A DNA stretch of 64,000 nucleotides from Actinomycetes bacterium. GTDB taxonomy: Bacteria; Actinomycetota; Actinomycetes; S36-B12. The stretch is taken from the NCBI GenBank assembly GCA_965278945.1, contig OZ257128.1, positions 600,075 to 664,074 on the forward strand. The letters run 5' to 3'. Made by a program: the position numbers and the translations under genes. Numbering within the stretch: the stretch's first letter is position 1; each line of letters begins with the position of its first letter. The notes under the pieces are model-generated. The model searched no databases. It was given only the letters and a program-made list of their open reading frames with translations, and was not told the origin of the DNA. Shown one piece after another: positions 9,073-37,167 of this stretch.

Positions 9073-9127
9073 CCATGGACAGTGGCTCGCTCGGGGAGCC
9101 GGCCGGATGTTGTCGGCTAGCATCGGG

Positions 9128-10153: not shown

Positions 10154-10165
10154 CGGTCCCCGACC

Positions 10166-11215
10166 GTGCTCAGCCCCTCGCTGGTCGGCGACATCGCCCA
10201 CGACTCGCTCACCCTTGACGACCTTTCCGGCGACGATGCGCGAGCACTGATCAGGCACGACCTGGCCTTCGCGGTCTGCAAAGCGATCGATGCGAACGGA
10301 GCATCGCTTCCCGAGGAGACCGACTCGCTCCTGCGCACGGCTGCCCGCCAGCAGTCCATGCGTAGCATCTCGGTCGCCGCGACCGCGACGAGCGTCGCGC
10401 AGCTCCTGACCAGTGCTGGCGTGCGCAGCATCGTCTACAAGGGTCCAGCCCTCGCGGTGCAGACGACCGGATCGTTCGTCGGGCGGGGAAGCGCGGACAT
10501 CGACGTGCTCATCGATTCGCGCGACACGACCACCACCGATCGTGCACTGCGTGCCGCTGACTGCGTCAGCCGCGCGGGTTACACCGGAGCCCCGTCGCGC
10601 TGGGAGAAGTACCACCGCCCCGAGCGCGCCTACTCCGGCCTTCCGGTGACGATCGACCTGCATTGGCGCGTCGACTCCAGCCCCGGCTACTTCAAGGGCA
10701 ACTTCGCACGGCAGTGGCTGCGCGGTGAGCGTCTTGATGTCGACGGGCTTCAGGTCATGACCTTCGAACGTCTGGACGCGCTGCTGGCCACCGCCGCGCA
10801 CGGCGCGAAGGAACGGTGGTGGAGGTGGTTCTGGGCTCTCGATGCCGTGCGTCAGGTCGAGCAGCTCGACGAGGCGCTGTGGCCGGAGGCCCGGTCTCGA
10901 TCGGTCGAGACCGGAACGTCGAAGGCGCTCGACCTGTGTCTTGCCGTCGCTGCCGAGTGCGGAGCGCGCATGCCTGCCGGTGTCGAGGCGTCCGCGGGGA
11001 TGCGCGATGTCGCGCGCGCGTGGTTCGAGCAGTCATCAGGAGCAACCTCAGTTGAGTGGAGCAACAGCGCGGCCCTGTCGCGGCGCAAGGCGCGCTGGAT
11101 CATCGCCGACTCGCGCATTGCGGCGGTCGACGGATTCCTGCGAGCAGCGGCACGACTGGTCGCGGACCGTCGCGCGCCCGGCGCTCCGCAACGAAAGCGA
11201 CCCGACGGTGGCTAG
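10166..11215 (+). CDS. Nucleotidyltransferase family protein of the type found in lasso clusters
   Basis: IVYKGPALA, GRGSADIDVLI, IDLHWR, AHGAKE.W..WALD motifs. Confidence 0.8.
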   Translation: MLSPSLVGDIAHDSLTLDDLSGDDARALIRHDLAFAVCKAIDANGASLPEETDSLLRTAARQQSMRSISVAATATSVAQLLTSAGVRSIVYKGPALAVQTTGSFVGRGSADIDVLIDSRDTTTTDRALRAADCVSRAGYTGAPSRWEKYHRPERAYSGLPVTIDLHWRVDSSPGYFKGNFARQWLRGERLDVDGLQVMTFERLDALLATAAHGAKERWWRWFWALDAVRQVEQLDEALWPEARSRSVETGTSKALDLCLAVAAECGARMPAGVEASAGMRDVARAWFEQSSGATSVEWSNSAALSRRKARWIIADSRIAAVDGFLRAAARLVADRRAPGAPQRKRPDGG

Positions 11216-11224
11216 GGTGCGTCC

Positions 11225-12151
11225 ATGACGGTGCTGGTAACCGGGGGCGCCGGCTTCATCGGGAGCAACCTCGTGCGTGCGCTGTCCGCGCGTGGTGACG
11301 AGGTGCGCGTCCTCGATGACCTGTCCACCGGGCTCGTCTCGAATCTCGCTGGCATCGACGTCGCTGCGGCCGAGGGATCGATCACGGACCCCGCAGCCGT
11401 TCAGATGGCGATGGACGGAGTGACGTCGGTCGTGCACCTCGCCGCCCGCGGTTCCGTGCCGCGGTCCGTCGCCGATCCGATCGGCAACCACTCGGCAAAC
11501 GACACGGGCACCCTCAACGTGCTCGAGGCAGCCCGCGCCGTCGGGGCGCATGTGGTCTTCTCGTCGTCCTCGTCGGTCTATGGCGTGAACACCGAGCTGC
11601 CCAAGCGCGAGGAGATGTGGACCCAGCCGATGTCTCCTTACGGCGCCAGCAAGCTGGCCGCCGAGTCGTACCTCATGGCGTACCGGGATGTGTATGGCCT
11701 GAGCGCGCTCGCGCTGCGCTTCTTCAACGTCTACGGGCCGTGGCAGCGACCCGACCATGACTACGCGGCGGCCATCCCGCGGTTCGCCGGGGCCGCACTG
11801 AACGATCAGCAGATCTCGGTGCACGGAGACGGGGAGCAGACGCGCGACTTCACGCATGTCGATGCCGTCGTGCGCGTGCTCATCGACGCGGTCGATCGGC
11901 GGGTCTCCTGGGACCGGCCGGTGAACCTCGCCTTCGGTGACCGCATCAGCATCAACGACGTCGTCACCGAACTGTCCCGCCAGCTCGACCGACCGCTGGA
12001 CGTCGTCCACACCGATGCGCGCGCTGGCGACGTGCGGCACAGTCAGAACGATCCCTCGCTGCTGAAGCGCGTGTTCCCGACTGCCGAGCCGGTCGGCTTC
12101 GCCGACGGGATCGCCTCGACCCTCGGCTGGCTGGTCTCCACGCGTGCCTGA
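11225..12151 (+). CDS. NAD-dependent sugar epimerase (UDP-Glc/GlcNAc 4-epimerase-like)
   Basis: TGGAGFIGSN, SSSSVYG, YGASK, RFFNVYGP, GDGEQTRDF. Confidence 0.9.
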   Translation: MTVLVTGGAGFIGSNLVRALSARGDEVRVLDDLSTGLVSNLAGIDVAAAEGSITDPAAVQMAMDGVTSVVHLAARGSVPRSVADPIGNHSANDTGTLNVLEAARAVGAHVVFSSSSSVYGVNTELPKREEMWTQPMSPYGASKLAAESYLMAYRDVYGLSALALRFFNVYGPWQRPDHDYAAAIPRFAGAALNDQQISVHGDGEQTRDFTHVDAVVRVLIDAVDRRVSWDRPVNLAFGDRISINDVVTELSRQLDRPLDVVHTDARAGDVRHSQNDPSLLKRVFPTAEPVGFADGIASTLGWLVSTRA

Positions 12152-12431
12152 GCTCGCGGGCTCCGCAGTGCCGCGTCGCGCCGATCGCGTGGTGCAGGCG
12201 GCGGTCGACGGCGAACTCGTGCTGATGAGCCCGAAGGACTTCGCCTACTTCGGCACCGCGGGCTCGGGCGATCCGGTGTGGGAGCTCATCGACGGGTCGC
12301 GGTCGGTCGACCAGATCGTCGCCGACCTGGAGTCGCGCTTCGCTGCAGAGCCCGGGGTGATCCGCACGCAGACGCTGGCCTTCCTCGATGCCCTCCAGGC
12401 CGCCGGCCTCGTCACGGTCTCCACCGCCTGA
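12144..12431 (+). CDS. PqqD-family RiPP recognition element (lasso B1 protein)
   Basis: 95 aa; VDGELVLM..YF...VWELIDG.RSVDQIV..L...F....FLDAL...GLV pattern. Confidence 0.85.
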   Translation: MPELAGSAVPRRADRVVQAAVDGELVLMSPKDFAYFGTAGSGDPVWELIDGSRSVDQIVADLESRFAAEPGVIRTQTLAFLDALQAAGLVTVSTA

Positions 12432-12461
12432 CCCACCTCCCAAACCCCCGCAAACCCGGTC

Positions 12462-12480
12462 GTTGAGTGGTGAGTTGTCG
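12462..12480. repeat. REP-like hairpin family A, left arm (interrupted by IS30)
   Basis: gttgagtggtgagttgtcg is the exact reverse complement of 13785-13803. Confidence 0.85.
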
Positions 12481-12493
12481 CGCGATCGCTGCG

Positions 12494-13771
12494 GGCAGGT
12501 TCAATCGGTGAGTGCAACGCCTGAGTGGTGGAGGCGTTGTGGCTGGTTCGGATCGGTATTACTCGTGGGAGCGGCGTAGGCCGTTCTTCGACGCGATTGC
12601 CCATGGTGCGTCGTTTCTGGAGGCGGTCGCGGTGGTGGGCGCGGCGGGGTCGGCGTGCCAGAAGTGGTGGCGGCAGTCTTCGGGCATGCAATTGACGTTG
12701 GGGGTGCGCGGGGGCTTGAGGATTGTTCCTGGCGGGGATGGGTTTGTCGGGGACAAGTTGACGGCGCTGGAGCGCGATCAGATCGGCACGGGTCTGGCGG
12801 CGGGCTTGTCGCAGGCGGCGATCGCGCGTGTGATCGGGCGTAGCGCGTCGACGGTGTCGCGGGAGGTCCGCCGTAATGCCGGGCCGGATGGGACGTATTA
12901 CGGGTCGCTGGCGCACGTGAAGGCGTTCCAGCGGGCTCGCCGGCCCAAGGGTTTCAAGCTGGATGGGCGCGCGGATCTGATCGCGGCCATCACCGGCTGG
13001 CTCGATGATGGGTGGAGTCCGCGGCTGATCGCCCTCGTGCTGGCCGAGCAGGGCGGCGGGGACAAGACTGCACGGGTGTCGCACGAGACGATCTACCAGT
13101 CCCTTTACGTGCAGGCGCGCGGGCATCTGCGCGCGGACCTGCATCGGGCCTTGTCCACGGGCCGTGCCCGGCGCCGATCACGGACCGCGACCCGACGTGG
13201 TCCCAGTCCGTTCTCCGATGCCCTGACGATCTCCCAGCGACCCTCCGAGGTCGATGACCGCGCCGTGCCAGGTCATTGGGAGGGCGACTTGATCCTGGGC
13301 ACCGGATGCGCCTCGGCGATCGGGACCCTGGTCGAGCGGTCGACCAGGTTCACGATCCTGCTGCACCTGCCGATCGATCACACCGCGGAGGAAGTCGCCA
13401 AGGCGATGATCACAGCGATGGGCGACCTGCCCGAGCACCTGCGCCGCTCGATCACCTGGGACCGCGGAAGCGAGCTGGCCCGCTGGCGCGACATCCAGAT
13501 CGCCCTGGACACGCAGTTGTTCTTCTGCGACCCGCACTCACCCTGGCAGCGTGGCAGCAACGAGAACACCAACCGGCTGCTACGGCACTGGTTCACCAAG
13601 GGCACCGACCTGTCCGTCCACGACGTCACCGAGCTACGCCGCGTGCAGGACAAACTCAACTCCAGACCACGCCCTACCCTTGGACTGAAGACCCCCGCCC
13701 AAGCACTCGCGGAATACCTCGAGCAGCAGGCGGCCTAGACAACCGCGTTGCACTCACCGATTGACATCGCC
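12494..13771 (+). mobile_element. IS30-family insertion sequence (type 1)
   Basis: Perfect 20-bp inverted repeats at 12501-12520 and 13745-13764, extendable imperfectly to 12494/13771; flanking GCG direct repeat at 12491-93 and 13772-74. Confidence 0.9.
12512..13738 (+). CDS. IS30-family transposase
   Basis: HTH STVSREVRRN, VSHETIYQ, GHWEGDLI, TWDRGSE, PWQRGSNENTN; true start may be slightly downstream. Confidence 0.95.
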   Translation: MQRLSGGGVVAGSDRYYSWERRRPFFDAIAHGASFLEAVAVVGAAGSACQKWWRQSSGMQLTLGVRGGLRIVPGGDGFVGDKLTALERDQIGTGLAAGLSQAAIARVIGRSASTVSREVRRNAGPDGTYYGSLAHVKAFQRARRPKGFKLDGRADLIAAITGWLDDGWSPRLIALVLAEQGGGDKTARVSHETIYQSLYVQARGHLRADLHRALSTGRARRRSRTATRRGPSPFSDALTISQRPSEVDDRAVPGHWEGDLILGTGCASAIGTLVERSTRFTILLHLPIDHTAEEVAKAMITAMGDLPEHLRRSITWDRGSELARWRDIQIALDTQLFFCDPHSPWQRGSNENTNRLLRHWFTKGTDLSVHDVTELRRVQDKLNSRPRPTLGLKTPAQALAEYLEQQAA

Positions 13772-13784
13772 GCGCGATCGGCGA

Positions 13785-13803
13785 CGACAACTCACCACTC
13801 AAC
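13785..13803. repeat. REP-like hairpin family A, right arm
   Basis: cgacaactcaccactcaac pairs with 12462-12480. Confidence 0.85.
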
Positions 13804-13812
13804 AAGGACGGG

Positions 13813-15489
13813 CTAGCGGAGGGTGACCACGTGGTCCGCCGCGGCGATCGTCGAGCGTCGGTGCGCTACCACGAGGACGGTCACCGCTGGGGTGAGCGAT
13901 CTGATGAGCGCGAGCACCTCGGCCTCGGTCGCATCGTCGAGAGCTGACGTCGGCTCGTCCAGCACGAGCAGGACAGGCCGTCGCAGCAGCGCTCGAGCAA
14001 GGGCCACGCGTTGGCGCTCGCCACCGGACAGGCGAAGGCCCCGATCGCCGAGGGGGGTGTCGAGTCCGTCGGGCAGAGTGCGCGCGAACGACGCGGACGC
14101 CTGGTCGAGTGCGCTCCATAACTCGTCATCGCTGCAGTCGCGCTGGACGGACCACGCCAGGTTGTCGCGCAGCGAGCCCGGGATCAGCACGCTCTCCTGC
14201 GGAACATAGGCGATATGCGCGCGCCACCATGCGAGATCCGCGTCGGGCAGTTCGGCTCCGTCGATGAGGATGCATCCGCTCGTCGGCACGAGGAGCCCCA
14301 GAACCAGGTCGACAGTCGTCGACTTGCCCGCCCCGGATGGTCCGACCAGGGCGGTGATCGCGCCGCGCGGGACGGTGAAGCTCTGGGCCTGCACTCCGCT
14401 TTCGGTGCCGGGGTAGGTGAAGGACACGTCGACGAACTCGGCGAGCGTCGATCCTGTCGACAGTGTCGAACGGCTCGACTCGGCACCCGCAGGGACCTCG
14501 ACCTCGCGACGTGCCTCGTCGGTGAGCGTGGTGAGGTCGCGGACGGCCGGCAGTGAGTTGGCCATGAGCGCAGACGCGCTGACCATCTGCCTAACGCTGA
14601 TGGCCAGGCGGAAGACCAGCAGCAGGACGACGACGATGGTCGCGGGCGGAACGTCGAGCGCGACGGCCACGAGCACGAGTACCGATGCGGCTATCGCCGT
14701 GCCAACCGACGTCAGCCCGGACACGAGCGACTGGCGGCGCACGTTCGACACCTGCACCTCGCGCGTGCCCGCGAATGCGTCCGCGAGCCGGTCGGTCCAT
14801 ACGACGGAAGCCGAATGCGCGCGAACCAGCCGAAGGGAGTCGAGGGAGTCGGTGATGACGGACTGCATGGTGCGCTGGCGCTCGCCCAGCTCGACGCCGA
14901 GCCGGTGGGCCGGGCGAACGGACAACGACTGAGCCGCGGCCATGAGGATCACTCCGAGGATCGCGATCAACGCGACGACGGGGGACACGAACAGCGCGAT
15001 GATCGCGGTAACCAGTGCGAGCACGCCGCTGACGCAGAACTGCAGCAGCTGGTTGTAGGCCATGCCCGCGCGAACGGCGCCGAGGCTGATCACGGCGATG
15101 ATGTCGCTGCGTCGCCTGCTGAGCAGGAAGGTCCACCGCGCTGCGAGCACGGCGGCGAATGCCTCGTGACGCAGTTGATCGACGAGCACCTGCTGCACGC
15201 GGGTGGTCGTCACCGACGACACCTGGGCGATCGCTGCCTGCACGACGATGACGAGGACGAAGGCGGCGAGGAGCGCCCACAGGGGAACCGAGCTCAGCTC
15301 GAAGTCGCCGAACAGCGGCACCGTCAACGTGGCCGTGCTATCGGCTATGGAGTTCACGATTGGTATGAGAAGCAGCAGGCTTGCGCCGCCGAGCACCGCG
15401 GTCGCAAGAAGCGCGAGGATCTGGATGACGACCCGACGAGGCGACAGCCGCCACGCCTGCGCAGCGAGAAGGCGCATGTCGCCGATCAC
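13813..15489 (-). CDS. ABC exporter, fused permease/ATPase (candidate lasso D)
   Basis: TM domain plus GPSGAGKST, LSGGERQR, LLVLDE; GTG 15489 overlaps upstream stop. Confidence 0.9.
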   Translation of the reverse strand: MIGDMRLLAAQAWRLSPRRVVIQILALLATAVLGGASLLLLIPIVNSIADSTATLTVPLFGDFELSSVPLWALLAAFVLVIVVQAAIAQVSSVTTTRVQQVLVDQLRHEAFAAVLAARWTFLLSRRRSDIIAVISLGAVRAGMAYNQLLQFCVSGVLALVTAIIALFVSPVVALIAILGVILMAAAQSLSVRPAHRLGVELGERQRTMQSVITDSLDSLRLVRAHSASVVWTDRLADAFAGTREVQVSNVRRQSLVSGLTSVGTAIAASVLVLVAVALDVPPATIVVVLLLVFRLAISVRQMVSASALMANSLPAVRDLTTLTDEARREVEVPAGAESSRSTLSTGSTLAEFVDVSFTYPGTESGVQAQSFTVPRGAITALVGPSGAGKSTTVDLVLGLLVPTSGCILIDGAELPDADLAWWRAHIAYVPQESVLIPGSLRDNLAWSVQRDCSDDELWSALDQASASFARTLPDGLDTPLGDRGLRLSGGERQRVALARALLRRPVLLVLDEPTSALDDATEAEVLALIRSLTPAVTVLVVAHRRSTIAAADHVVTLR

Positions 15490-17171
15490 GAGTCGGCCTC
15501 GATCGCGTCGAGCACGGCATCGAGCGTCCACGCGTCTCGCGGTCGCTCGACGAGAGTGATCGGCACGATGTCCGCGAGCTGGGCCACCTGCGCAAAGTAG
15601 CGCTCCTGGCCGAGCACGATCGGCGCGATGCCATCGCGCGTGGTGTGGGCCAGGAGTGCAGCCATCCGCTCTGCTCCGAAAATACGGCGGACCGTCACCA
15701 CCTGCTCGTCCGTCGACGTGAGGACGACGATGCCGTCGATGCGCCGCGGCTCGGCGGACGGAGCCTCGGCGCGGAATGCGACCTTCACGCGTCCGCGGCC
15801 CAGCGGAGCCAGCGAGTCGAAGTCGACGCCCACCGCTGCGGCAGCGTCCTCAAGGAGGTGGACGTTCCTCGAGTACGGAGTCGTCCATGCGCCGCCATCG
15901 CGGAACTCGACGAGAGTCACGTCATCGCACAGCAGGGCGTGGCCCCGCGATCGCAAACCCATTGCCGTTGTTGACTTTCCCGCGCCGCGGGCGCCTGCGA
16001 CGGCAACGACCCGATTGCCCACAAGAACCGTCGACGCGTGCAGGCTGAGCATTCCGCGCTGCAGCATCGCGAGGGTGACTGCCCAGCCCTGCACCATCCA
16101 GCCGACGTCGTCTGCCCCGGAGACGCCGCGGTCGACAACCACGTCAGTGCCATTCTCGACGAGCAGTCCCGCGCGACCGCGGAAGCGCAGGAGCGCGGCC
16201 GTGGGGGTGACCTCGATCCACGGCCGCGGCTGCTCGGCGCCCGGCAGCGAGACGGGAAGTCGGCCCTCGCGCACGCTGATACCCAGGCTCGGTGGCAGCC
16301 AGCGCCAGTCGCTCGCGTCGATCGTCACGGAGGGGGAGTAGCCCAGTCGCGCCATGAGCTCGGCGTGCTCGTCCTCGATCATCGCCGCCTGGTCGTCGGT
16401 GAGCTCGTCGCGCCATCCGCCCTCGATACCCCGACGGAAGAACTGCTCGGTATTCGGATGCGTGCCGCGGAACCCGCGGTCCGCCTCGGACTCCTGCAGG
16501 CGGTCGAACCTGGCCTGCTCGACCGCGACCGCGAGCTCCTCCTGCGAGCACTCGATGCCAATGGCGGTGAACACCGGATGCAGGGTCGCGACCGCATCGG
16601 ACACGAGGTCCTCGAAGCGCACGACATGCACGGGGAAGGGCACGTCCTCGCCGAGCCAGCTGCAGGCATGGCTGCTCCATGTTCCCCACGGCTGCGCGGT
16701 CTGCGATCTCGCCGCGTTCGCGACCTGCTCGCCACCGTTCGTGCCCATCGCGTCGATCGCCTCGTCGATCGTCGTGCCGAAGAAGGCCGCGGCCGAGCAC
16801 GCCACGTCGCGTGGATCGCGCACGACGAGGATTGCGGCCCGCGTCGCGTCTGCGGGGAATGGGGCACTCCCGCTACTGCCGGTTCTGTAGATCTCGTGCG
16901 TCTTGCGCAGGAGCGGCGCGCCGGTCTCGTCCGACTGTGCGAATCGTCGCGTCAGCGCGCTGCGCACTCCATCGTTCTCGTCATCGGTCAGCCATCGCGT
17001 GTCCAGGCCGTAGGCACCCAGTGCGGCCCCGACGTGGTGCGGCTGCGACCCCGACGACAGGTGGTCGACGCCGAACAGCTCCGGATGCGTGCCGAGCGCG
17101 GTGACGATCGCGCGAACCCAGGTGTTGCCGGACTTCGGATAGGACGCCAGCCACACCGTACGGGCGCTCAC
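15486..17171 (-). CDS. Fusion of PAPS-dependent sulfotransferase and HPr-kinase-like domain
   Basis: N-half WLASYPKSGNTW (5'-PSB) and VVRDPRDVACS (3'-PB); C-half LHAS..VAGARGAGKSTT..LLCDDV. Confidence 0.82.
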   Translation of the reverse strand: MSARTVWLASYPKSGNTWVRAIVTALGTHPELFGVDHLSSGSQPHHVGAALGAYGLDTRWLTDDENDGVRSALTRRFAQSDETGAPLLRKTHEIYRTGSSGSAPFPADATRAAILVVRDPRDVACSAAAFFGTTIDEAIDAMGTNGGEQVANAARSQTAQPWGTWSSHACSWLGEDVPFPVHVVRFEDLVSDAVATLHPVFTAIGIECSQEELAVAVEQARFDRLQESEADRGFRGTHPNTEQFFRRGIEGGWRDELTDDQAAMIEDEHAELMARLGYSPSVTIDASDWRWLPPSLGISVREGRLPVSLPGAEQPRPWIEVTPTAALLRFRGRAGLLVENGTDVVVDRGVSGADDVGWMVQGWAVTLAMLQRGMLSLHASTVLVGNRVVAVAGARGAGKSTTAMGLRSRGHALLCDDVTLVEFRDGGAWTTPYSRNVHLLEDAAAAVGVDFDSLAPLGRGRVKVAFRAEAPSAEPRRIDGIVVLTSTDEQVVTVRRIFGAERMAALLAHTTRDGIAPIVLGQERYFAQVAQLADIVPITLVERPRDAWTLDAVLDAIEADS

Positions 17172-17923
17172 GATGCCCACCACTCGAGCAACTGGCCGAC
17201 GGACGCGTCGTGCTCGGCGCCGATGCGTAGGACTGCCGACGGCAGGTCGGCCAGCCGTAGGTGCTCGCTGACCGCGGGCTCGTCGGACTCCGCGACCGGT
17301 GCGAGCGCGCCTCCCAGCATGAGGCTCGCGGCGCGCTCGAACTTGCGGTGGCCGGTCAGCTCGGTGAACGCGTCCTCGCTCGGCCGACGTCGCGTGACCT
17401 GCACCACGCGCGAGACGGTCGCCGGCACGACCGAACGCGGCAGGTCGACGCTGACCACGTTGGACTGGTCGCGAATCGCGGCCCCGTCGAATCCGGCGGC
17501 GACGGCTCGCTGCTTGGCGATCAGCAGCGGCGCGGACCTGGGGTGAGCGATCAGCCGGCTGTCGACCCAGCGCGTGGGCGTCGGCCGGTCGCTCAGGAGC
17601 AGCCAGCCATGACGGGACAAGGCGATAACGACAGTCGCGACCTCGGGAGCATCACCGCAGACGAGTAGGGCATGGTCTGCAGAGTCGGCAGGAACGACGG
17701 CGGCTCCCAGCGCCATCGAGTAGCCGCGACGGGCATGGGACAGCAGGTCGCCCCATCCGTGGTGGAGGGCGCGAGCCTTCTGCCCGAGCGGATCAGGCCC
17801 TTCGGCCTCGGTGAACACGTCGCCGTTTGCGCCAATGGCGACTGACCCGAGTCCTGCACACGTTCCGCGCCAGACCGGACCGGTGCGGTCAAGCACGACG
17901 GCCGGTGGATCCTGCGAGTTCAC
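17168..17923 (-). CDS. HPr-kinase-like paralog with degenerate P-loop
   Basis: Parallels the kinase half of the downstream gene (A.LVCG....LSRHGW.LLSD..T), but GDAPEVATV replaces Walker A. Confidence 0.5.
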   Translation of the reverse strand: MNSQDPPAVVLDRTGPVWRGTCAGLGSVAIGANGDVFTEAEGPDPLGQKARALHHGWGDLLSHARRGYSMALGAAVVPADSADHALLVCGDAPEVATVVIALSRHGWLLLSDRPTPTRWVDSRLIAHPRSAPLLIAKQRAVAAGFDGAAIRDQSNVVSVDLPRSVVPATVSRVVQVTRRRPSEDAFTELTGHRKFERAASLMLGGALAPVAESDEPAVSEHLRLADLPSAVLRIGAEHDASVGQLLEWWAS

Positions 17924-18022
17924 GTGGCTAGGTTCCCATGTCCGCGTCAAGCCGCGGGTGGGATGGCCGCGCTGAGTAATGTCCAACGCAGTTCCGGTCG
18001 AGTCAGTTTCCAGGAGACGTCA

Positions 18023-18757
18023 GTGACGACTGCCCCGCACGAGCGCACTCCGAGGCTCTGGCCGCTCGTGGTCGCGCTTGTCGCGGTCGTGCTGCTGGCC
18101 GGGGTGTTCTTCGCGTCCGAGGCCGCAACCGACCGCCCCGCATCGCCGCCTCTTGGCCCGACAGCATGCGTCACGACGGAGGACCCGCCGATAGGCGGCA
18201 CCGCGACGCAGGTCACGGAAAACGGGGTCGTTTACAACCTCTACACCTTCACCGGCAATGGCGTCCTGACCCCGACGAACTCCGTCACCTATCACTACGA
18301 ACTGATTGACGGATCCGGCGAGTTCGCCGGCACAGCGCAGGCCACCGCGGGAGTCGAGATCGCCGCGGACACGGTCCGGATTCGCTGGCCGAGGTTCTGC
18401 CAGAACATCTCGCAACCTACGGCGCCGTCGCTGACCGGCTCGACGTTCTCCTGGGCGCCCCCAGCGTTCGTCCCGAGCGGGCAGAGCATCGCCTCGTACA
18501 CCGTCATCTACAAGGAGACGGCCGACGACGGCGCCGGCCACGTCTATGCCATCAGCTCCAGTGGTCAGCCGAGGAGCATCAATCTCGACGGGACCACGAC
18601 GGAGCAATGCACGACGCAGAACCTGGCGGGCTGGACGTGCGATCTGGGCATTGACTTAGTGAGCGGGCGGACGTACGAGTTCCGCGTCTTCGCGAGGCCC
18701 TCGTCAGGAGTTCCGGCCGGCCAGCTGACCCCGGCGTTCGCTGTGCTCGCGCCATAG
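18023..18757 (+). CDS. Secreted protein, short paralog of the glycine-rich/FN3-like proteins
   Basis: Signal/TM segment, YTFTGNGVLTP, C-terminal SW..P..YTV.Y..WTC..L.SG.TYEFRVFA; AGGAG before GTG 18023. Confidence 0.65.
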   Translation: MTTAPHERTPRLWPLVVALVAVVLLAGVFFASEAATDRPASPPLGPTACVTTEDPPIGGTATQVTENGVVYNLYTFTGNGVLTPTNSVTYHYELIDGSGEFAGTAQATAGVEIAADTVRIRWPRFCQNISQPTAPSLTGSTFSWAPPAFVPSGQSIASYTVIYKETADDGAGHVYAISSSGQPRSINLDGTTTEQCTTQNLAGWTCDLGIDLVSGRTYEFRVFARPSSGVPAGQLTPAFAVLAP

Positions 18758-18782
18758 CGAATATCGCTGTAATGTCGCACTT

Positions 18783-20081
18783 GTGTCGCAGAAATGTCGC
18801 AGGACCGTCGCATTCGTGCTCGCGGGTGCCACCGCGCTGGCCGCGACCCTCGTGATGTATCCCGCGGGACCCGCGGCAGCGGCGGGTCCTGTGGTGTGCA
18901 CATCCACTGGTGGCTCGACCGTTGCGTCCACGATCGGCGGCATCAAGTACAACGTGGTTACTTTCACCGGCTCCGGCACATTCACCCCGGGCCAGGCCAC
19001 AAGGGCCGACTACCTGGTGGTCGGCGGTGGTGGTGGTGGCGGCGGATCCATTCGCCGAGTCGCGGGCGGCGGCGGTGGCGGGGGCGAGGTGCTGACCGGG
19101 TCGGTCTCCATTCCCGCGAGCGCCCAGACAATCACGATCGGAACCGGTGGGACCGCAGGAACGACATCGACGACCCGTGGCGGAACCGGCGTCGCGTCGA
19201 GCATCGCCGCGCTCGTTGTCGCGCAGGGCGGCACCGGCGGCGGAGCGGGAGTCACGAACCTGACGGGAGTTGCCGCGACGTCCGGCGCATCAGCGGGAGG
19301 CGGGGGAGGAGCGGCCAGTGGCACGGTCACTGGCGGTACCGCGACCGCGCCGGGATTCGCCGGAGGCAACGGAATAACGAGTGGTACCACCACGAATCCG
19401 TCGGGTGGTGGTGGCGGCGGGCAGGGAGCGATCGGTTCCAACGCGACGCTCGCCAACGGAGGTGCCGGTGGCGCCGGGCTGGGAAGCTCCATCACTGGAT
19501 CGCCCGTGACCTACTCGGGCGGTGGTGGCGGCGGCGGGAACGCGACCGGCGGAGCGGGGGCGAACGGCGGCGGCGCGGGCGGAACGTCCGCGGCTCAGAC
19601 GGGAGGCACCGGCACGGGGAACACCGGCAGTGGCGGCGGCGGAGCGGGCAACGGGACGGTGAACTCGAACCAGAGCGGGGGCGCTGGGGGCAGCGGGAAG
19701 ATCATCATTCGCTACCCGAAGTACTGCCTAAACGCATCGCCCCCGACCTCGGTGAGTTTCACCAGTCCGACAATGTCATGGGCGGCACCCGTGTACCTGC
19801 CCTCGGGCGCAACGGTGGCGGCGTACACGGTCACGTACCGGGTGTCGACGGACTCCACGGCCGGCAACATCTACGCCGTGAGCACCAGCGGCTCGGCGCT
19901 GTCGATCAACGTCACGGGCGTTGCCCAGGGAACATGCAATTCGAACAACCCGTCAGGTTGGACCTGCAATGCGGGAATCACCTTGACCTCGGGTAAGACC
20001 TACGAGTTCCGGGTCTTCGCGAAGTCGTCAACGGGAACGTTCGGGCAGATGGCCGCTGCGATCACCTACTCGGTTCCCTAA
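18783..20081 (+). CDS. Secreted glycine-rich-domain protein with C-terminal FN3-like domain
   Basis: Signal peptide, TFTGSGTFTP..YLVVGGGGGGG, GGSGKIIIRY, shared C-terminal domain. Confidence 0.75.
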   Translation: MSQKCRRTVAFVLAGATALAATLVMYPAGPAAAAGPVVCTSTGGSTVASTIGGIKYNVVTFTGSGTFTPGQATRADYLVVGGGGGGGGSIRRVAGGGGGGGEVLTGSVSIPASAQTITIGTGGTAGTTSTTRGGTGVASSIAALVVAQGGTGGGAGVTNLTGVAATSGASAGGGGGAASGTVTGGTATAPGFAGGNGITSGTTTNPSGGGGGGQGAIGSNATLANGGAGGAGLGSSITGSPVTYSGGGGGGGNATGGAGANGGGAGGTSAAQTGGTGTGNTGSGGGGAGNGTVNSNQSGGAGGSGKIIIRYPKYCLNASPPTSVSFTSPTMSWAAPVYLPSGATVAAYTVTYRVSTDSTAGNIYAVSTSGSALSINVTGVAQGTCNSNNPSGWTCNAGITLTSGKTYEFRVFAKSSTGTFGQMAAAITYSVP

Positions 20082-20267
20082 TCCGGACAATCTACGCACG
20101 CGCCGCCCGACAGGGCTGCCAAAGTCCCGAGTCGGCCGATAATTAGCCATAGAAAGCCCTCCGCCGTGGCAGTTGCAGGGAATGCGCGCTGATATCCTTC
20201 GATTGAGGCGAGTGTTATCCAGGATAATCCTGTCTAGCTCGCGACGGTGGCACCCGGGAGGACGAGC

Positions 20268-21587
20268 ATGACGGGTCGACGCACGACGACGCGTTTAGTC
20301 GCGCTCGCCGGCACGTCTGCCGCCGCGCTCGCGATGCTCGTCGCCGTGCCGGCATATGCCGCAGCGCCTGGCTCGCCCGCCTGCAACGCAACGGGCGGCA
20401 ATCTGATCACGAGCACCAGTGCGGAAAATGTCGCGGGCAACTTCGTCCACACGTTCACCGCGAGCGGGACCTTCACGCCCAAGCAGGCGATGACCATCAC
20501 CTACCTGATCGTCGCCGGTGGCGGTGGTGGTGGCGGAGCAGCAGCGAGCACGGCCGGTGGTGGTGGAGGCGCCGGAGAGATGATCACCGCATCTGTGGCC
20601 GTCACCGCGAATACCGCGTACACGATCACCGTGGGCGGTGGCGGCGCGGGAGGCGCATCGACGACGAGCCGCGGAACCGTCGGGAGCGTGAGCAGCATCG
20701 GCTCCCCGATCTCCGTCACCGCGCAGGGCGGCGGCGGCGGGTCTGCCGGAGTGACGAACTTTGCAGGCGTGAACGTGACGACCGGAGAATCCGCCGGAGG
20801 TGCCGGCGGAAACGCGGCCAATGGCACTCCCGCCGGAGGCACCGCGGTCGCGCCAGGCGGTAACGGCGGCAACGGGCGCGGTTCGACGACGACGTCGCGC
20901 CCGGCCGGTGGCGGCGGTGGCGGCGACGGTGCAGCTGGGGCGGCTAGTCCGTCCAATGGCGTCGGCGGCGCGGGCGGCGCGGGCACCGCGAGCTCGATCA
21001 CTGGCACCTCACTTACCTACGCCGCTGGTGGTGGTGGCGGCGGTCGCACCACGGGCGGCGCTGGCGTAAGTGGCGTCAGTGGCGCCGGAGGACTGGCGAT
21101 CGCAGGAACTGCTGCTCCCGGAAACCGTGGTGGCGGTGGAGGAGGAGCCGGAAACGGCACGAGCGGGACCAAGGCGGGAGGCAATGGCGGATCGGGAGTC
21201 GTCATCATCTCCTACGCCAAGAACGCTGGGTGCTTCTCTGCGCCCCAGTCACCGTCGTTCTCCAACCCCACCTTCAGTTGGACCGCTCCGGCGACCACGC
21301 CCACGGGCCAGACGGTGTCGTCATACACGGTGATGTACAAGAGGTCCACGGACACGACCTACGGCAACATCTATGCGCGGCGAGTCGCCGGACAGACGGC
21401 GACAAGCTTGAATATCACTGGCGTTGACAACGCTGCCTGTGCGACCAACAACAGTGCCTTGATCTGGACGTGCGTCTCGGTCCAACTCGTCAGCGGTCAG
21501 ACTTACGACTTCAAGGTATTCGCGAGGGGAAGCGCGACGAGTTCCTTTGGAAGGCTTTCGACCGCAGTTCAGTACACGGTTCCGTAA
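20268..21587 (+). CDS. Secreted glycine-rich-domain protein with C-terminal FN3-like domain (paralog)
   Basis: TFTASGTFTP..YLIVAGGGGGG, GGSGVVIISY; GGAGGA before ATG 20268. Confidence 0.75.
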   Translation: MTGRRTTTRLVALAGTSAAALAMLVAVPAYAAAPGSPACNATGGNLITSTSAENVAGNFVHTFTASGTFTPKQAMTITYLIVAGGGGGGGAAASTAGGGGGAGEMITASVAVTANTAYTITVGGGGAGGASTTSRGTVGSVSSIGSPISVTAQGGGGGSAGVTNFAGVNVTTGESAGGAGGNAANGTPAGGTAVAPGGNGGNGRGSTTTSRPAGGGGGGDGAAGAASPSNGVGGAGGAGTASSITGTSLTYAAGGGGGGRTTGGAGVSGVSGAGGLAIAGTAAPGNRGGGGGGAGNGTSGTKAGGNGGSGVVIISYAKNAGCFSAPQSPSFSNPTFSWTAPATTPTGQTVSSYTVMYKRSTDTTYGNIYARRVAGQTATSLNITGVDNAACATNNSALIWTCVSVQLVSGQTYDFKVFARGSATSSFGRLSTAVQYTVP

Positions 21588-21616
21588 TGATCGAGGACAT
21601 GGAAGGAGGCGAGCAC

Positions 21617-21751
21617 GTGGACAGTCAACTCCAGACGTGGGTGACCCCGCGCCTGGTTCCGCTTGCTGCCTCTGGCGACTCGAAAAACAATCTCTCCGGC
21701 ACTGGTGACATCGACCAGACCTACAGCGGGTTCCCGTACGGCTATAGCTGA
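21617..21751 (+). CDS. Lasso peptide precursor (44 aa: MDSQLQTWVTPRLVPLAASGDSKNNLSGTGDIDQTYSGFPYGYS)
   Basis: GGAAGGAGG RBS at 21601-09, WxxPxL leader motif, two Asp candidates in core, C-terminal Ser, stop 4 nt before the cyclase start; alternative ATG 21587 gives 54 aa. Confidence 0.8.
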   Translation: MDSQLQTWVTPRLVPLAASGDSKNNLSGTGDIDQTYSGFPYGYS

Positions 21752-21755
21752 TCCC

Positions 21756-23339
21756 ATGCACGGACTAACCGCGCGACTGGGTCCGTCTGGCTTCGTGGTC
21801 GACACGCCTGCGGCCGATGCCCCGACGATTGCCACGGAAGTCCTTGCTCCCGACGGCACCATGGCGGGCGCGGTCTACGGCTCGGTCTCGCAGCGGGAGG
21901 CCGACGCACTCGTCATGCGCCTGTCGCTCGGGGGTGACCCGGGAGGACCGGACGTGCCTTGGATCGCGGTCGCGCGATTCGGGTCTGACGGGCTCGCGGG
22001 CGCGGCTTCCATGATGATGCCGAGCGGTCTGTTCTGGTCCGTGGCTAACGACGAGCTGGTCGTCTCGTCGGACCCGGTGTCGGCGACGACAGATCACACC
22101 CTCGACCCCCAATACGTCCGTGACTATGTCGCGGGCAAGACGCGTCCGGTCACCGCTGCGTTCGTTGGCGTACGTCGTGCGACCGCCGGGTCGACTGTGA
22201 CCTGGGCGACGCCGACGTCGCCGGTCGGCTCGCACGTGTGGTGCGGTCCCAGTGTGTGGTCGCAGCCGAGCCTTGACGGCCTGGCGGCCATGACGACCTA
22301 TCTCGAGGTGTTCGACGCGGTCATCGCGGATCTTGCTCGACGATCGCGTCCGCTCGTGACCACCGTGTCGGGCGGTCTCGACTCGACTTTCGTCGCCGCC
22401 AGCCTTGTCAGGGGCTCAGACGGTCCGGTACGCGGCCTCACGTACGCGCCCGTTCCTGGTGCGATGGTCGACGCCGATGCTGACGAGTCCGCTCTCGCCA
22501 TGCTCATGGCGGACGAGTACCCGGGCCGACTGACGGTCGAGCGAGTCGGAAACGCAGGAATGGTCAGGCCGCTGGCGGCCGCGGCAGAGATCTCGCGCCG
22601 CGCGGGAGTTCCGACGTTCACGCCGGCGAACCAGCCCTGGTTGTCGCGGATGCGCGAGATCGCTGCGAGTGGCGGTTCATCGATGTGGTTCGTCGGTTCG
22701 AACGGCAACGCCGCGTTCAGCTATCACCATCCCTACGCGGCCGACTACTACCTTCGTCGGGCGCGAATCCACGGTCTCGCGGAGCTGGCCCGTGATGGCG
22801 GACTGCGCACCCGGGTGCTCGGTCCGTTGAGGCGAAAGTATCTGGGCGGGCCGACGGACTCGTCGGCAGCAATGGACCGAGCCACGTACCTGCGTTGGCT
22901 GGCCCGTTCGGTCACGGGACTGCCTGCTGCCGGCAACCCCGCGGCGATGCAGGGCGTGCTGATGGCAGACCCCTTTGCTTCGCGGGCGGTCATCGAGGTC
23001 GCGGCGGCCATCACCCCGGCCGAGTGGGCCCGCGGGGGAGTTGCCCGAGGGTTTGCGAGGAGAGCGAGCATTGGACGGGTCCCCGACGCGATCCGGCTAC
23101 GAAGCGGACGGGGCCTCCAGGGCAGGGATGCGTGGTTCGTCATCCGCAACGACAAGGACGACTACCTGGACCGGATCTCCACCCTGCCGGGCCTTGCGGG
23201 TCTCGAGGAAGTCGACCACAAGGAAATGCACGCGCAGGTTGCCGCGTGGCCGTGGGGCCAGACGCAGGGACCGCCCTGGTTGGATCAGATCGCCGTGGAC
23301 CGAGTTCTCGGCGTGGCCGAGTTTGTAAGCATTTGGTAG
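21756..23339 (+). CDS. Asparagine-synthetase-like lasso cyclase (C protein)
   Basis: VSGGLDST PP-loop, G.NGN, DPFASRAVIE, ARRA..GRVPDAIRLR.GRGLQ; no N-terminal catalytic Cys of the glutaminase domain. Confidence 0.85.
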   Translation: MHGLTARLGPSGFVVDTPAADAPTIATEVLAPDGTMAGAVYGSVSQREADALVMRLSLGGDPGGPDVPWIAVARFGSDGLAGAASMMMPSGLFWSVANDELVVSSDPVSATTDHTLDPQYVRDYVAGKTRPVTAAFVGVRRATAGSTVTWATPTSPVGSHVWCGPSVWSQPSLDGLAAMTTYLEVFDAVIADLARRSRPLVTTVSGGLDSTFVAASLVRGSDGPVRGLTYAPVPGAMVDADADESALAMLMADEYPGRLTVERVGNAGMVRPLAAAAEISRRAGVPTFTPANQPWLSRMREIAASGGSSMWFVGSNGNAAFSYHHPYAADYYLRRARIHGLAELARDGGLRTRVLGPLRRKYLGGPTDSSAAMDRATYLRWLARSVTGLPAAGNPAAMQGVLMADPFASRAVIEVAAAITPAEWARGGVARGFARRASIGRVPDAIRLRSGRGLQGRDAWFVIRNDKDDYLDRISTLPGLAGLEEVDHKEMHAQVAAWPWGQTQGPPWLDQIAVDRVLGVAEFVSIW

Positions 23340-23367
23340 GCCACATGACCCGGCGTAACCTCTACTC

Positions 23368-24378
23368 GTGAGAGGCAATCGAGTTCGCGCGCGTCGTGCC
23401 CTCGTCATCGCTAGTATCTCGGGCCTCGGGCTCGGTGCCGCGCTGATCTCTCCTACGCCGGCCCACGCGGCCGACGCCTCGATAGGGGTCAGTCTCTACA
23501 GCGTCGGCGGAGCACAGATCCAGTTCAGCATCTGCCTCAACGAGGGTGACGCTCTGCCCGCTCGCGTGAACGGGACGTACACGGTGACGGGTGGTGCCGG
23601 CACTGTCGGCCCGGTCGATTGGTCCGACGCCGATCCGACTTCGATTCTCATCGGCACAGAACCCTGCCCGAGTTCGCTCGTGACGATCGCGGTGGACGAC
23701 CTCCTTCCGTCGACGAGCTACACGATCAACGTCCACGTCAACCTCGTTCCCAAGACCGAGGACGACGACGACAATTTCGTTGACGACACGTCGCGCTCGA
23801 CAGTGTCGCTTGATGCATCGCTCGTAGCGTCGACCACGGACGGGACCTCACCTGACAATGGGCCTGGCGCCGGGGAGTCGGGCGGCGAGACAGGTACGAC
23901 CGACGGGTCTACGGATGCGGGCACTGGGGGTACCTCACCTGGAAATGCCGGCACATCGACCGGTGGTGCCGTCACACCCGTCGTCATCAGCAATCCCGCT
24001 GCGTTCACGTCCTCCCAGTTCTCGGCGCTGACGCCAGCACAAGTGGCGACCATTGCGCCGTCGGCCTTCGGTCAGTTGCCTCCGGCCACGTTCAAGGCGA
24101 TGACCGCGACCCAGGCCGCCGCAATCACGGTCGAGCAGGCATCGAGCATTCGCGCAGCACGTGCCGCAGAACTCCGGCCGTCGGCAGTTGCCGCACTGAC
24201 ACCTAACGCCATCGCTGCGATGCGTCCGTCCGCGATCAAGTTCCTGACGCCGGCGGCCGTAGGAGCCATGACCACCGCCCAGCTACGCGCGCTCACCCCG
24301 CGCCAGATCGCCGCGCTGCGTCCGCTTCAGATCGCCGAGCTCACGGCCGCCGAGAAGGCCTTGCTCCGGGTCAGATGA
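23368..24378 (+). CDS. Secreted protein with C-terminal octapeptide repeats
   Basis: Signal peptide ending AHA, beta-rich domain, G/T linker, about 14-15 eight-residue units (LTPAQVAT..LTPRQIAA). Confidence 0.7.
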   Translation: MRGNRVRARRALVIASISGLGLGAALISPTPAHAADASIGVSLYSVGGAQIQFSICLNEGDALPARVNGTYTVTGGAGTVGPVDWSDADPTSILIGTEPCPSSLVTIAVDDLLPSTSYTINVHVNLVPKTEDDDDNFVDDTSRSTVSLDASLVASTTDGTSPDNGPGAGESGGETGTTDGSTDAGTGGTSPGNAGTSTGGAVTPVVISNPAAFTSSQFSALTPAQVATIAPSAFGQLPPATFKAMTATQAAAITVEQASSIRAARAAELRPSAVAALTPNAIAAMRPSAIKFLTPAAVGAMTTAQLRALTPRQIAALRPLQIAELTAAEKALLRVR

Positions 24379-24905
24379 GCATGCCGAGCGAGCATCCCGC
24401 GCAGAGCGCCGCATCGCGGCGTTGGCGGGGTCGCGCCCGCGTCGCGCAGGCGATGGCGCTCATGACCGTCACCGGTGCTGCGCAGAAGATCGTTCCGATG
24501 ACCCGCTGGTCCCGCGTGATCGGCGAGCACTCCGGCGTGCCGACCGCATGGGAGGCGAAGCCCGATCGTCCCGTGCCGTTGCGCAGCGCAGACCTCGACG
24601 AGGAGCGCGTGCGTCGCGCGATTCAACGTGCCGCCGATCGCCTGCCCTGGACGCCGAGCTGCCTGGCGGAGGCGGCGGCGGGCCAGATCATGCTGCGCCG
24701 TCGCGGCAAGCCCGGCGTCGTCGTCATCGGCCTGCGTCCGGCCGCCGGTGAGTGGGATGCGCATGCCTGGCTGCTCGGCGCGCGTGGCGCGCTGACCGGC
24801 GGGCCCGCGGCCGAGGGCTTCACGCCGACGACGGTGTTCGAGGTACCGGACGGACTGAAGGCCTCGGACGTCGACCTGTCCGAGCCCACCCCGCACCACG
24901 CCTAG
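24375..24905 (+). CDS. Lasso B2 leader peptidase (transglutaminase-like)
   Basis: WTPSCLAEA (Cys), VVIGL, AHAWL (His); ATG overlaps upstream stop. Confidence 0.88.
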   Translation: MSMPSEHPAQSAASRRWRGRARVAQAMALMTVTGAAQKIVPMTRWSRVIGEHSGVPTAWEAKPDRPVPLRSADLDEERVRRAIQRAADRLPWTPSCLAEAAAGQIMLRRRGKPGVVVIGLRPAAGEWDAHAWLLGARGALTGGPAAEGFTPTTVFEVPDGLKASDVDLSEPTPHHA

Positions 24906-24924
24906 CCCACCCACCCACCCCCCG

Positions 24925-24938
24925 CGAGTGGGCAGTTG
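24925..24938. repeat. REP-like hairpin family A, left arm (interrupted)
   Basis: cgagtgggcagttg, identical to the arms at 31458, 33192 and 41313. Confidence 0.75.
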
Positions 24939-24955
24939 ATGCTGCATTTCCGGCG

Positions 24956-26216: not shown

Positions 26217-26232
26217 TCGATTTCGGCCGCGA

Positions 26233-26246
26233 CAACTCACCACTCG
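26233..26246. repeat. REP-like hairpin family A, right arm (variant)
   Basis: caactcaccactcg, matching the variant arm seen at 13785-13803. Confidence 0.7.
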
Positions 26247-26372
26247 ACGAGGTTTCCGTGCCGGGATTGGGGGTGATTCCGGGTCACCGATCCGACACTC
26301 CTAGGGAAGGTCTCGTTCGGCATGGTCGAGCCCGCTTGCCAGCCGGCTCGACTGAACCGAAGGAGGCATCCC

Positions 26373-34763: not shown

Positions 34764-34765
34764 GT

Positions 34766-37159: not shown

Positions 37160-37167
37160 GGGATCTC

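Follow-up and report, generated by a model that had tools for sequence, protein, structure and literature searches.

A probable locus for a phosphorylated lasso-type peptide, interleaved with secreted-protein genes, in an uncultured actinomycete

Lasso peptides of the paeninodin type are modified at the C-terminus: HprK-like kinases phosphorylate the terminal serine of the linear precursors (PMC8498205, PMC9266682), and in pseudomycoidin the nucleotidyltransferase PsmN is required for hexose addition to the phosphoserine (PMC6993621). Sulfotransferase, kinase and nucleotidyltransferase genes in Firmicutes lasso clusters were noted already in 2014-2016 (PMC4289311, PMC8498205), which means that the set of enzymes as such was known before. 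A paper from 2026 places paeninodin-like lasso clusters and clusters for linear polyphosphorylated peptides (LPP) of Bacilli in capsular-polysaccharide loci, co-induced with an exopolysaccharide gene; a role in biofilms has been speculated for these clusters, said to be restricted to Bacillota, but their function is unknown (PMC13381572). Here we describe a 64,000-nucleotide stretch of contig OZ257128.1, called the window below, with about 67% GC. We consider it probable that a set of genes between positions 10166 and 24905 makes up one biosynthetic system for a phosphorylated, paeninodin/pseudomycoidin-like lasso-type peptide in an uncultured high-GC actinomycete.

A preliminary description of the locus, made from the sequence letters, had taken as established both the kinase reaction on the C-terminal serine and the link between the pseudomycoidin nucleotidyltransferase and a sugar on the phosphate, and both agree with the papers cited above.

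Gene content and enzymes

The preliminary description had also named, mostly with positions, a precursor (A), a cyclase (C), a leader peptidase (B2), a recognition element for ribosomally synthesised and post-translationally modified peptides (RRE, B1), an ATP-binding cassette (ABC) exporter, a nucleotidyltransferase (NTase), a sulfotransferase-kinase fusion and a kinase paralog. All are present, intact and at or near those positions in Pfam and NCBIfam scans, which together with third-position GC gave the gene identities listed here.

10166-11215, plus strand: NTP_transf_5 nucleotidyltransferase (PF14907, 113.7 bits against a cut-off of 31.2)
11225-12151, plus strand: NAD-dependent sugar-nucleotide epimerase/dehydratase (PF01370, 193.7 bits)
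12144-12431, plus strand: B1, PqqD-family RRE (PF05402, 54.5 bits against a cut-off of 23.4)
13813-15531, minus strand: ABC exporter (ABC_tran and ABC_membrane)
15486-17183, minus strand: sulfotransferase-HprK-like kinase fusion (Sulfotransfer_1 PF00685, 83 bits; HprK_C PF07475, 24 bits, below the cut-off of 33.3)
17168-17923 as called, minus strand: HprK-fold pseudokinase, 251 aa, no Pfam or NCBIfam match; the open reading frame (ORF) reaches 17986
17924-18757, plus strand: fn3 protein (Pfam)
18783-20081, plus strand: first Gly_rich_2 and fn3 protein (Pfam)
20247-21587, plus strand: second Gly_rich_2 and fn3 protein (Pfam)
21617-21751, plus strand: precursor peptide A, 44 aa, GTG start (Shine-Dalgarno motif and conservation)
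21756-23339, plus strand: C, Asn_synthase, ATG start (PF00733, 59 bits)
23368-24378, plus strand: secreted ALTTAQ-repeat protein (PF20080, 47.7 bits)
24375-24905, plus strand: B2 leader peptidase (NF033537, 62.4 bits against a cut-off of 33; PF13471, 64 bits)

These genes form three blocks over 14.7 kb: NTase, epimerase and PqqD on the plus strand, the exporter, fusion and pseudokinase on the minus strand, and the fn3/Gly-rich genes, A, C, the ALTTAQ gene and B2 again on the plus strand. Neighbouring ORFs overlap each other in the minus-strand block, and from the second Gly_rich_2 gene, which stops 30 nt before A, to B2, whose start is overlapped 4 nt by the ALTTAQ gene, the gaps are 30 nt or less or the genes overlap. 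The epimerase and B1 genes overlap by 8 nt and are therefore probably co-translated. Consensus promoter and terminator sites in 9000-26500 were no more numerous than in shuffled sequence, so the blocks are defined by gene spacing and orientation only; being co-oriented and tightly spaced, the secreted-protein genes are probably co-expressed with A, C and B2. B1 is 9.2 kb from A in the window, and about 7.9 kb in relatives free of insertion sequences (IS). As to the earlier warning that genome miners could split or miss the cluster, distance concerns B1 and the tailoring block only; A, C and B2 all lie inside 3.3 kb, so that detection of this core should not fail.

The candidate cyclase C keeps the PP-loop SGGLDS205, a motif that is invariant across 45 homologues, and starts with MHGL, i.e. 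it has no Cys2 and hence no N-terminal catalytic (glutaminase) cysteine. Its AlphaFold2 model (pLDDT 93.5) comes nearest in fold to two AsnB-fold enzymes, carbapenam synthetase and beta-lactam synthetase, with AsnB itself after them; these two form an amide within one molecule by way of an acyl-adenylate. A Protein Data Bank (PDB) sequence search with a profile of C gave one weak match only. B1 does not reach the NCBIfam cut-offs specific to lasso systems; among solved structures it is closest to lasso B1 proteins, namely TbiB1 (5v1u, E 2e-5) and, weakly, 9x90_B (E 6e-4). B2 is a transglutaminase-like cysteine leader peptidase in which Cys96 and His130 are kept. An exact-sequence look-up of B2 returned no record, and neither B2 nor the Gly-rich protein gave a match in a PDB sequence search. 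The exporter is a half-transporter with fused transmembrane and nucleotide-binding domains, MsbA/McjD-like, with relatives of 558-560 aa; its true start is likely at 15489, where it overlaps the fusion gene's stop codon; its NCBIfam matches are to exporters, all under the equivalog cut-offs. In the NCBIfam scan C and PqqD had sub-threshold matches only, and the NTase, the pseudokinase, the ALTTAQ protein and the peptide had none.

Catalytic motifs are intact in the kinase, the sulfotransferase, the NTase, B2 and C. The NTase has a metal-binding D-I-D motif at residues 111-113, which resembles the catalytic pair mutated in PsmN (PMC6993621), and its homologues adjoin the cyclase gene in three of the loci of relatives (numbered with L below; P-numbers are library proteins), namely L017, L028 and L031. 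The N-terminal half of the fusion is a sulfotransferase of the 3'-phosphoadenosine-5'-phosphosulfate (PAPS) type with PAPS-binding and catalytic motifs (PKSGNTW16, RKTHE93, RDPRDVACS122, RRGIEGGW250). Its C-terminal half has the His (LHAS381), Walker A (GARGAGKST397, Lys403) and Asp-Asp (LLCDD417-421) residues, which is the His-Lys-Asp-Asp set defined for lasso-tailoring kinases (PMC9266682). TIGR04352 matches the fusion weakly, and the PDB sequence matches are to SULTs, to the glycopeptide sulfotransferases Teg12/14 and StaL, and to HprK. There are at least 282 homologues of the fusion; the best 120 are nearly all full-length fusions with 47-94% identity, all from metagenomes or metagenome-assembled genomes (MAGs), and the hosts include Nanopelagicales, Acidimicrobiales and one Nocardioides MAG. 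Judging from these matches, the fusion is common in uncultured Actinomycetota and more widespread than this cyclase clade.

The second minus-strand gene had been described as a kinase paralog, and as far as homology goes this is correct. It aligns with the kinase domain of the fusion (hhalign, 91.5% probability, E 8.5e-7, 218 columns), and the best folds for its AlphaFold2 model (pLDDT 84) are HprK/P (2qmh, 3tqf, 1kkm) and PEPCK. As a catalyst it does not stand: other residues take the place of the Walker-A Lys, the His and one Asp, and it is therefore a pseudokinase. Its gene immediately precedes the fusion gene, with an overlap, and a homologue is found just upstream of the fusion in L001, L002, L006, L011, L017, L029 and L031, the 7 actinobacterial loci where both genes are intact. 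The 309-aa proteins of Chlorobium-type loci were considered as relatives of the pseudokinase and rejected, there being no detectable relationship.

The precursor peptide and conserved synteny

The full sequence of precursor A is VDSQLQTWVTPRLVPLAASGDSKNNLSGTGDIDQTYSGFPYGYS, and the Shine-Dalgarno motif GGAAGGAGG is found 7 nt upstream of the GTG at 21617. It is the single precursor gene, and no further or degenerate copies were found in the window. The leader carries the motif WxxPxL as W8-V-T-P11-R-L13; for comparison, YxxPxL spans positions -17 to -12 in lasso leaders (PMC10368454), and WxxP hardly varies among paeninodin-like leaders, PbaA having its W at -15 (PMC13381572). The RRE-binding motif, in its general form [Y/W]xxPx[L/V/I/F/A] (PMC10368454, PMC13381572), recurs in 21 related peptides. 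Upstream of C, L001-L006 and L011 have the peptide as well, in conserved form. The C-terminus GFPYGYS* is the same in the window and all seven close relatives, and Ser-terminal precursors are also found in L017a, L031, P0193, P0194, P0196 and P0197. A library of 1.84 billion proteins holds five more small-protein clusters related to the precursor. L004 has two copies of the precursor gene (765-899 and 2335-2469), one of which precedes a Gly-rich gene.

The canonical register of lasso precursors, with Thr(-2), Gly1 and an acid at 7-9, was sought by eye and not found. A leader-anchored register test was used instead, in which 21 candidate peptides beside C homologues were anchored on the leader Trp. 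With the core starting at W+17, an Asp or Glu falls at core position 7-9 in 21/21 peptides; W+16 gives 20/21 and W+15 14/21, and offsets outside W+15 to W+19 give 2-7/21. In the W+17 register the window peptide has Asp at core positions 7 and 9. The predicted core is thus residues 25-44 (start possibly 23-25), with Asp31 or Asp33 as candidate ring acceptor and Ser at the C-terminus, and the predicted split is between the leader VDSQLQTWVTPRLVPLAASGDSKN and the core NLSGTGDIDQTYSGFPYGYS, give or take two residues at the core's N-terminal end. Residue 1 in this register is G, A, S or T in relatives, and L031 has G1, E8/D9 and a C-terminal Ser; the window family has Asn as core residue 1 and Lys/Arg-Asn at -2/-1, in the window Lys-Asn.

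As a separate observation, the core (N-x-SGTGDI...FP-x-G) resembles the repeat CPNASGTGDISETIATFPAGGSLTY in two DUF11-like giant surface proteins, P0195 (2397 aa, 11 times) and P0198 (549 aa, 4 times). We judged this to be probably a short-motif coincidence amplified by the repeats, if a curious one next to surface-protein genes.

The cyclase has 71 detected homologues, all from metagenomes or MAGs, and in the reference-genome scan its clade turned up nowhere but in MAGs, from uncultured Actinomycetes/Actinomycetota, Nanopelagicales and Chlorobium. A synteny check in relatives, proposed in the preliminary description, shows that the linkage is kept: the same three-block order and orientation, without the IS elements, is found in L001, L002, L003 and L006 (83, 73, 69 and 51% cyclase identity), and the order NTase-epimerase-PqqD is kept in L002, L003 and L006. 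The contig of L004 (57%) begins at the fn3 gene, and only the part from the fn3/Gly-rich genes over A, C and the ALTTAQ gene to B2 is visible. In L003 (5600-8300) the fusion and the pseudokinase are fragmented, with partial tblastn matches and short called ORFs, which suggests either decay of the tailoring block or assembly errors in this contig of 2.7x coverage. As far as gene order can tell, the dispersed layout is conserved and not accidental.

Other relatives have a compact arrangement. L017 is a contiguous cluster of ABC exporter, PqqD, pseudokinase, fusion, C, a 41-aa peptide, NTase, a stand-alone kinase and a second C, and L031 has pseudokinase, fusion, B2, ABC exporter, PqqD, precursor, an Asn-synthase of another clade and NTase. 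These two set the same enzymes side by side, from which it follows that the scattered genes of the window form one system, as had been proposed. The Chlorobium-type loci L027 and L028 add to C, PqqD and B2 a P-loop kinase that is HprK/ScmC-like and a sulfotransferase that belongs to another Pfam family, and L028 additionally has NTP_transf_5 genes and an APS kinase. The enzyme set thus recurs across phyla, with or without surface-protein genes.

Some details of these loci are given for completeness. The two cyclase genes of L017 go with two different precursors (6741-6866 and 12774-12905), only one of which is Ser-terminal. L029 (6074-14226), a widespread actinobacterial locus whose fusion protein is indexed in 46 assembly-collection blocks, with 24 contigs examined, has pseudokinase, fusion, B2, PqqD and two ABC exporters; no WxxP peptide there makes a convincing precursor, and three unannotated proteins (361, 411 and 371 aa) are in place of cyclase and precursor. 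In a Nanopelagicales MAG, L023 (18384-20577, the same as L026) has a second, different Asn-synthase beside a radical SAM gene, and this pair adjoins another WxxP peptide, …QQEPWVRPELVALSSGASSEG followed by GEALDPEAIGGILSS.

Proposed pathway, rival explanations and surroundings

The gene identities, the intact catalytic motifs, the conserved linkage and the conservation and register of the precursor are observed; the chemical steps, their order, the threaded topology and the target of sulfation are what we infer from the gene set. The PqqD-type RRE would bind the 44-aa precursor through the WxxPxL leader, and the kinase half of the fusion would phosphorylate the conserved C-terminal Ser of the still-linear precursor, a residue that fits the specificity of these kinases since the same target is known for them (PMC8498205, PMC9266682). 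The PsmN-like NTase would put a sugar on the Ser phosphate, with the co-translated epimerase supplying the sugar nucleotide, and the PAPS-type sulfotransferase half would sulfate a hydroxyl of the peptide tail or of the added sugar. The catalytically dead HprK-fold paralog may serve as adaptor or scaffold. B2 would cut the leader off after about residue 22-24, the Asn-synthetase-fold enzyme would adenylate Asp31 or Asp33 and close a 7-9-residue macrolactam on the new N-terminus, and the ABC transporter would export the product. We hypothesize that this could be the first sulfated lasso peptide, made by the kinase-sulfotransferase fusion with the aid of the pseudokinase; in line with the preliminary description, no characterised sulfated lasso peptide was found in the literature searched, the coverage of which is incomplete.

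Several points weigh against this pathway. C scores only 15 bits against the NCBIfam lasso-cyclase model NF033535, with a cut-off of 525, and no solved lasso cyclase is found among its fold or sequence matches. The window precursor lacks the canonical Thr(-2) with Gly/Ala/Ser/Cys at residue 1, and the Asn1 with its Lys/Arg-Asn junction is unusual for a lasso precursor, although Ile/Val(-2) exceptions to Thr(-2) are documented (PMC10368454). Cleavage at W+15 (as in PbaA), W+16 or W+17 would each leave an Asp at 7-9, so the exact site is ambiguous, and the 21 peptides of the register test are not independent, as 7 are from the window family and all were picked by leader motif and proximity to C. 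No gene for PAPS synthesis is found within the window. Within 10 kb, the fusion-bearing locus L029 has no detectable cyclase, and L007 and L026 have this cyclase clade but no B1, B2 or kinase. Every relative is a MAG or metagenome contig. Of the earlier claim of a complete lasso system with tailoring, the split-B gene set and the intact motifs thus stand, but the precursor is non-canonical and C goes unrecognised by the lasso-cyclase models, and for these reasons the lariat is something we infer.

The same weaknesses of C and of the leader/core junction, and the missing cyclase in L029, would be explained if the product were an LPP analogue, linear but still phosphorylated, glycosylated and sulfated, with C doing something other than closing a lariat, e.g. 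amidating or ligating an Asp side chain, and an almost identical enzyme set is indeed documented for linear polyphosphorylated peptides (PMC13381572). We find this unlikely, though it survives best among the rivals. A, C and B2 are adjacent and kept together, all 21 peptides have an acid at the spot needed for a 7-9-membered ring, and the nearest folds to C are intramolecular lactam synthetases. In addition, LPP use a SpI-type peptidase and a YxxPxVLxHQ leader (PMC13381572), whereas here the leader has WxxP and no signal-peptidase family is matched by any of the cluster genes scanned.

The peptide and the cyclase could also act on or with the neighbouring secreted proteins, in ligation or in the assembly of a fibre or coat, with the phospho-sugar-sulfate tail as an envelope anchor. 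The proteins encoded at 17924-21587 are three paralogous secreted or membrane proteins with a common C-terminal fn3-like domain, and these and the ALTTAQ protein have signal peptides or a transmembrane segment, as read from the sequence. In every relative whose cyclase identity is at least 43%, even in L007 and L026, the gene just upstream of A-C is an fn3 or Gly-rich one, and in L004 one of the two copies of A is upstream of a Gly-rich gene. The ALTTAQ gene is placed between C and B2 also in L001-L004 and L006, so that A-C sits between the two gene types, and L002 has a separate pair of Gly_rich_2 and ALTTAQ genes elsewhere. The tight spacing from the second Gly_rich_2 gene to B2 points the same way, as do the flanking loci for polysaccharide synthesis and type IV pili, and the synteny is suggestive. 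It is however the sole evidence, and does not speak to function. The compact clusters (L017, L031, Chlorobium) are without fn3, Gly-rich and ALTTAQ genes, which are thus not needed by the core pathway; the dedicated ABC exporter points to a free exported product; inspection of the secreted proteins revealed no sortase, LPXTG or other anchoring signal; and no similarity of the peptide to the Gly-rich, fn3 or ALTTAQ proteins was found. We regard this explanation as improbable. There is also little to recommend, at present, a combination in which the lasso-type peptide would be a dedicated partner of the co-transcribed secreted proteins, with its tail tied to the envelope, and thus a structural or assembly element and not a free antibiotic. 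That the product is an envelope component, as first suggested, is speculation that the sequence neither supports nor excludes.

Very improbable is a chance neighbourhood of two unrelated systems, i.e. a minimal lasso cassette of A, C and B2 next to an NTase, epimerase, sulfotransferase-kinase and ABC transporter that act on a glycan. The NTase-epimerase block does follow DUF4012 and OmpA-like genes and adjoins a locus with sugar transferase, DegT and epimerase genes, but the sole RRE sits in that very block, overlapping the epimerase gene, the kinase carries the four catalytic residues of the lasso-tailoring HprK type and the precursor retains the C-terminal Ser, and in L017 and L031 the tailoring genes form one contiguous run together with A and C, uninterrupted by polysaccharide genes. 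Least credible of all is a decaying, IS-disrupted remnant without a product, for although two IS30-like insertions lie in or beside the cluster and the fusion and pseudokinase are fragmented in L003, neither IS copy interrupts a gene, both sitting in palindromes, one between convergent genes and one past the end of the last gene, and all ORFs are full-length compared with relatives, with every catalytic motif intact.

Our preferred reading, one system for a phosphorylated lasso-type peptide, leaves the role of a few further features to be considered. These are the two conserved neighbours upstream of the NTase block and the IS elements:

7243-9072, plus strand: DUF4012 protein (Pfam)
9107-10153, plus strand: OmpA-like secreted protein (Pfam)
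12487-13775, plus strand, boundaries approximate: IS30-like element 1, transposase 12512-13738 (HTH_38 and rve)
24956-26217, plus strand: IS30-like element 2, transposase 25001-26209, at the downstream cluster edge after B2
41344-42605: IS30-like copy near-identical to element 2

The order DUF4012-OmpA-NTase-epimerase-PqqD is found also in L003 and L006, but DUF4012 and OmpA are missing from the compact L017 and L031, and it is uncertain whether they are part of the lasso system. The preliminary description had surface-protein and IS genes alike woven into the cluster; the secreted-protein genes are conserved there in relatives, but the IS genes are found in the window only. Element 1 splits a REP-like (repetitive extragenic palindromic) sequence between the convergent PqqD and ABC genes, which in L001 and L002 are no more than about 80-105 bp apart, and downstream of B2 the relatives carry other genes and not element 2. 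The comparison with relatives thus indicates that the IS elements are window-specific insertions and not part of the lasso system. The copies at 24956-26217 and 41344-42605, with 2 mismatches between them in 1262 nt, lie on either side of the type IV pilus block in direct orientation. Each of the three IS30-like elements is centred in a REP-like palindrome (GAGTGG..CAGTTG ... CAACTG..CCACTC), which is uninterrupted at the L001 site; the flanks of the copy at 24956 pair imperfectly, a hint of an IS-mediated rearrangement downstream of B2.

Upstream of the cluster are genes for a sugar transferase, an epimerase and a DegT aminotransferase, followed by the DUF4012 and OmpA-like genes. The type IV pilus locus downstream of the second IS (26322-47713) comprises large N-methyl (prepilin-type) ORFs at 26322-30597, PilM/N/O-like genes on the minus strand at 33280-36286, one PilB-like and two PilT-like ATPases at 36014-40081, PilC at 40068-41285, three ORFs with no Pfam match at 43849-46884 and a prepilin peptidase at 46895-47713. 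Right after the IS copy at 41344-42605, GC falls to 0.62 in 42000-44000, compared with about 0.67-0.70 elsewhere, and no confident gene call was made in 42605-43849. Farther to the right are housekeeping genes, among them a class-I aminoacyl-tRNA synthetase and homologues of mreB-mreC-PBP2-rodA. A 64-nt palindromic element, CGCCGACCTTGAGGTTGGCGTGG...CCACGCCAACCTCAAGGTCGGCGG, is present in two copies (53229-53293 and 58050-58113) that are 83% identical and about 4.8 kb apart, in a region with folC-like and NDK genes.

Comparison with described systems

The phosphorylated lasso peptides and LPP have no known biological role, and their repeated placement in capsule or polysaccharide loci is a puzzle (PMC13381572). 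With hundreds of related fusions in abundant uncultured freshwater and soil Actinomycetota, the same enzyme logic reaches well beyond Bacillota. The locus adds a putative, uncharacterised sulfation step, and one clade physically interleaves the peptide genes with secreted-protein genes, which makes it a compact gene set for learning what sulfation does to a lasso peptide and whether such peptides may serve the cell surface. No link between lasso peptides and Nanopelagicales-type lineages was found in the literature.

The HprK-related kinase A/B and HPr-rel-A PqqD families (TIGR04352, TIGR04355, TIGR04353) and the ScmC/ScmD cassette are matched weakly by the kinase domain and the PqqD protein of the window. 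We take the three TIGR models to describe a pair of HprK-like kinases beside a PqqD-type chaperone. The scores are far under the curated cut-offs (35.6 against 200; 17.4 against 35), so the window proteins are not members of those equivalogs. LPP of Bacillota, which also sit in capsular-polysaccharide loci, have a SpI-type signal peptidase, no cyclase or B2, and the leader YxxPxVLxHQxIxFET (PMC13381572), whereas the window has B2 and C and a WxxP leader; no Peptidase_S26 or signal-peptidase match, as an SpI-type (SipW-like) enzyme would give, was found among the scanned cluster genes.

The Bsf type, from Bradymonas sediminis and also Acidobacteriaceae and Sphingomonadales, resembles the window in that it is a phosphorylated lasso system found outside Firmicutes and its penultimate leader residue is not Thr; both the kinase and B2 depend on B1 there, and N genes are found in some clusters (PMC10368454). 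It has YxxPxL, Ile(-2), a Gly1-Asp8 ring, phosphorylation at Ser3 and no sulfotransferase fusion, whereas in the window the leader has WxxP, Lys/Arg-Asn comes ahead of the predicted core, and the C-terminal Ser is conserved.

The closest systems are those of two class II lasso peptides, phosphorylated or phosphoglycosylated: paeninodin (Paenibacillus dendritiformis, pade) and pseudomycoidin (Bacillus pseudomycoides, psm). They share with the window the split B1/B2, an AsnB-like C, the ABC exporter, a His-Lys-Asp-Asp HprK-like kinase, a Ser-terminal precursor with a WxxP leader and a PsmN-type NTP_transf_5 protein, and a frequent location in polysaccharide loci; some Firmicutes clusters also carry a sulfotransferase gene (PMC8498205, PMC9266682, PMC6993621, PMC13381572). 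The differences are that the window host is an uncultured actinomycete, outside the Bacillota range stated for them (PMC13381572), that the sulfotransferase is fused to the kinase and accompanied by an extra HprK-fold pseudokinase, that the precursor is without Thr(-2) and has Asn instead of Ala as predicted residue 1, that C is too divergent for the NCBI lasso-cyclase models, and that the genes, interleaved with four for secreted proteins, fall into three blocks that extend over 14.7 kb. As judged from sequence comparison, what is new is the actinobacterial and Chlorobium range of a paeninodin-like system, the pair of fusion and pseudokinase, and the clade-specific, conserved interleaving with secreted Gly-rich, fn3 and ALTTAQ genes, and the non-canonical leader/core junction is distinctive as well.

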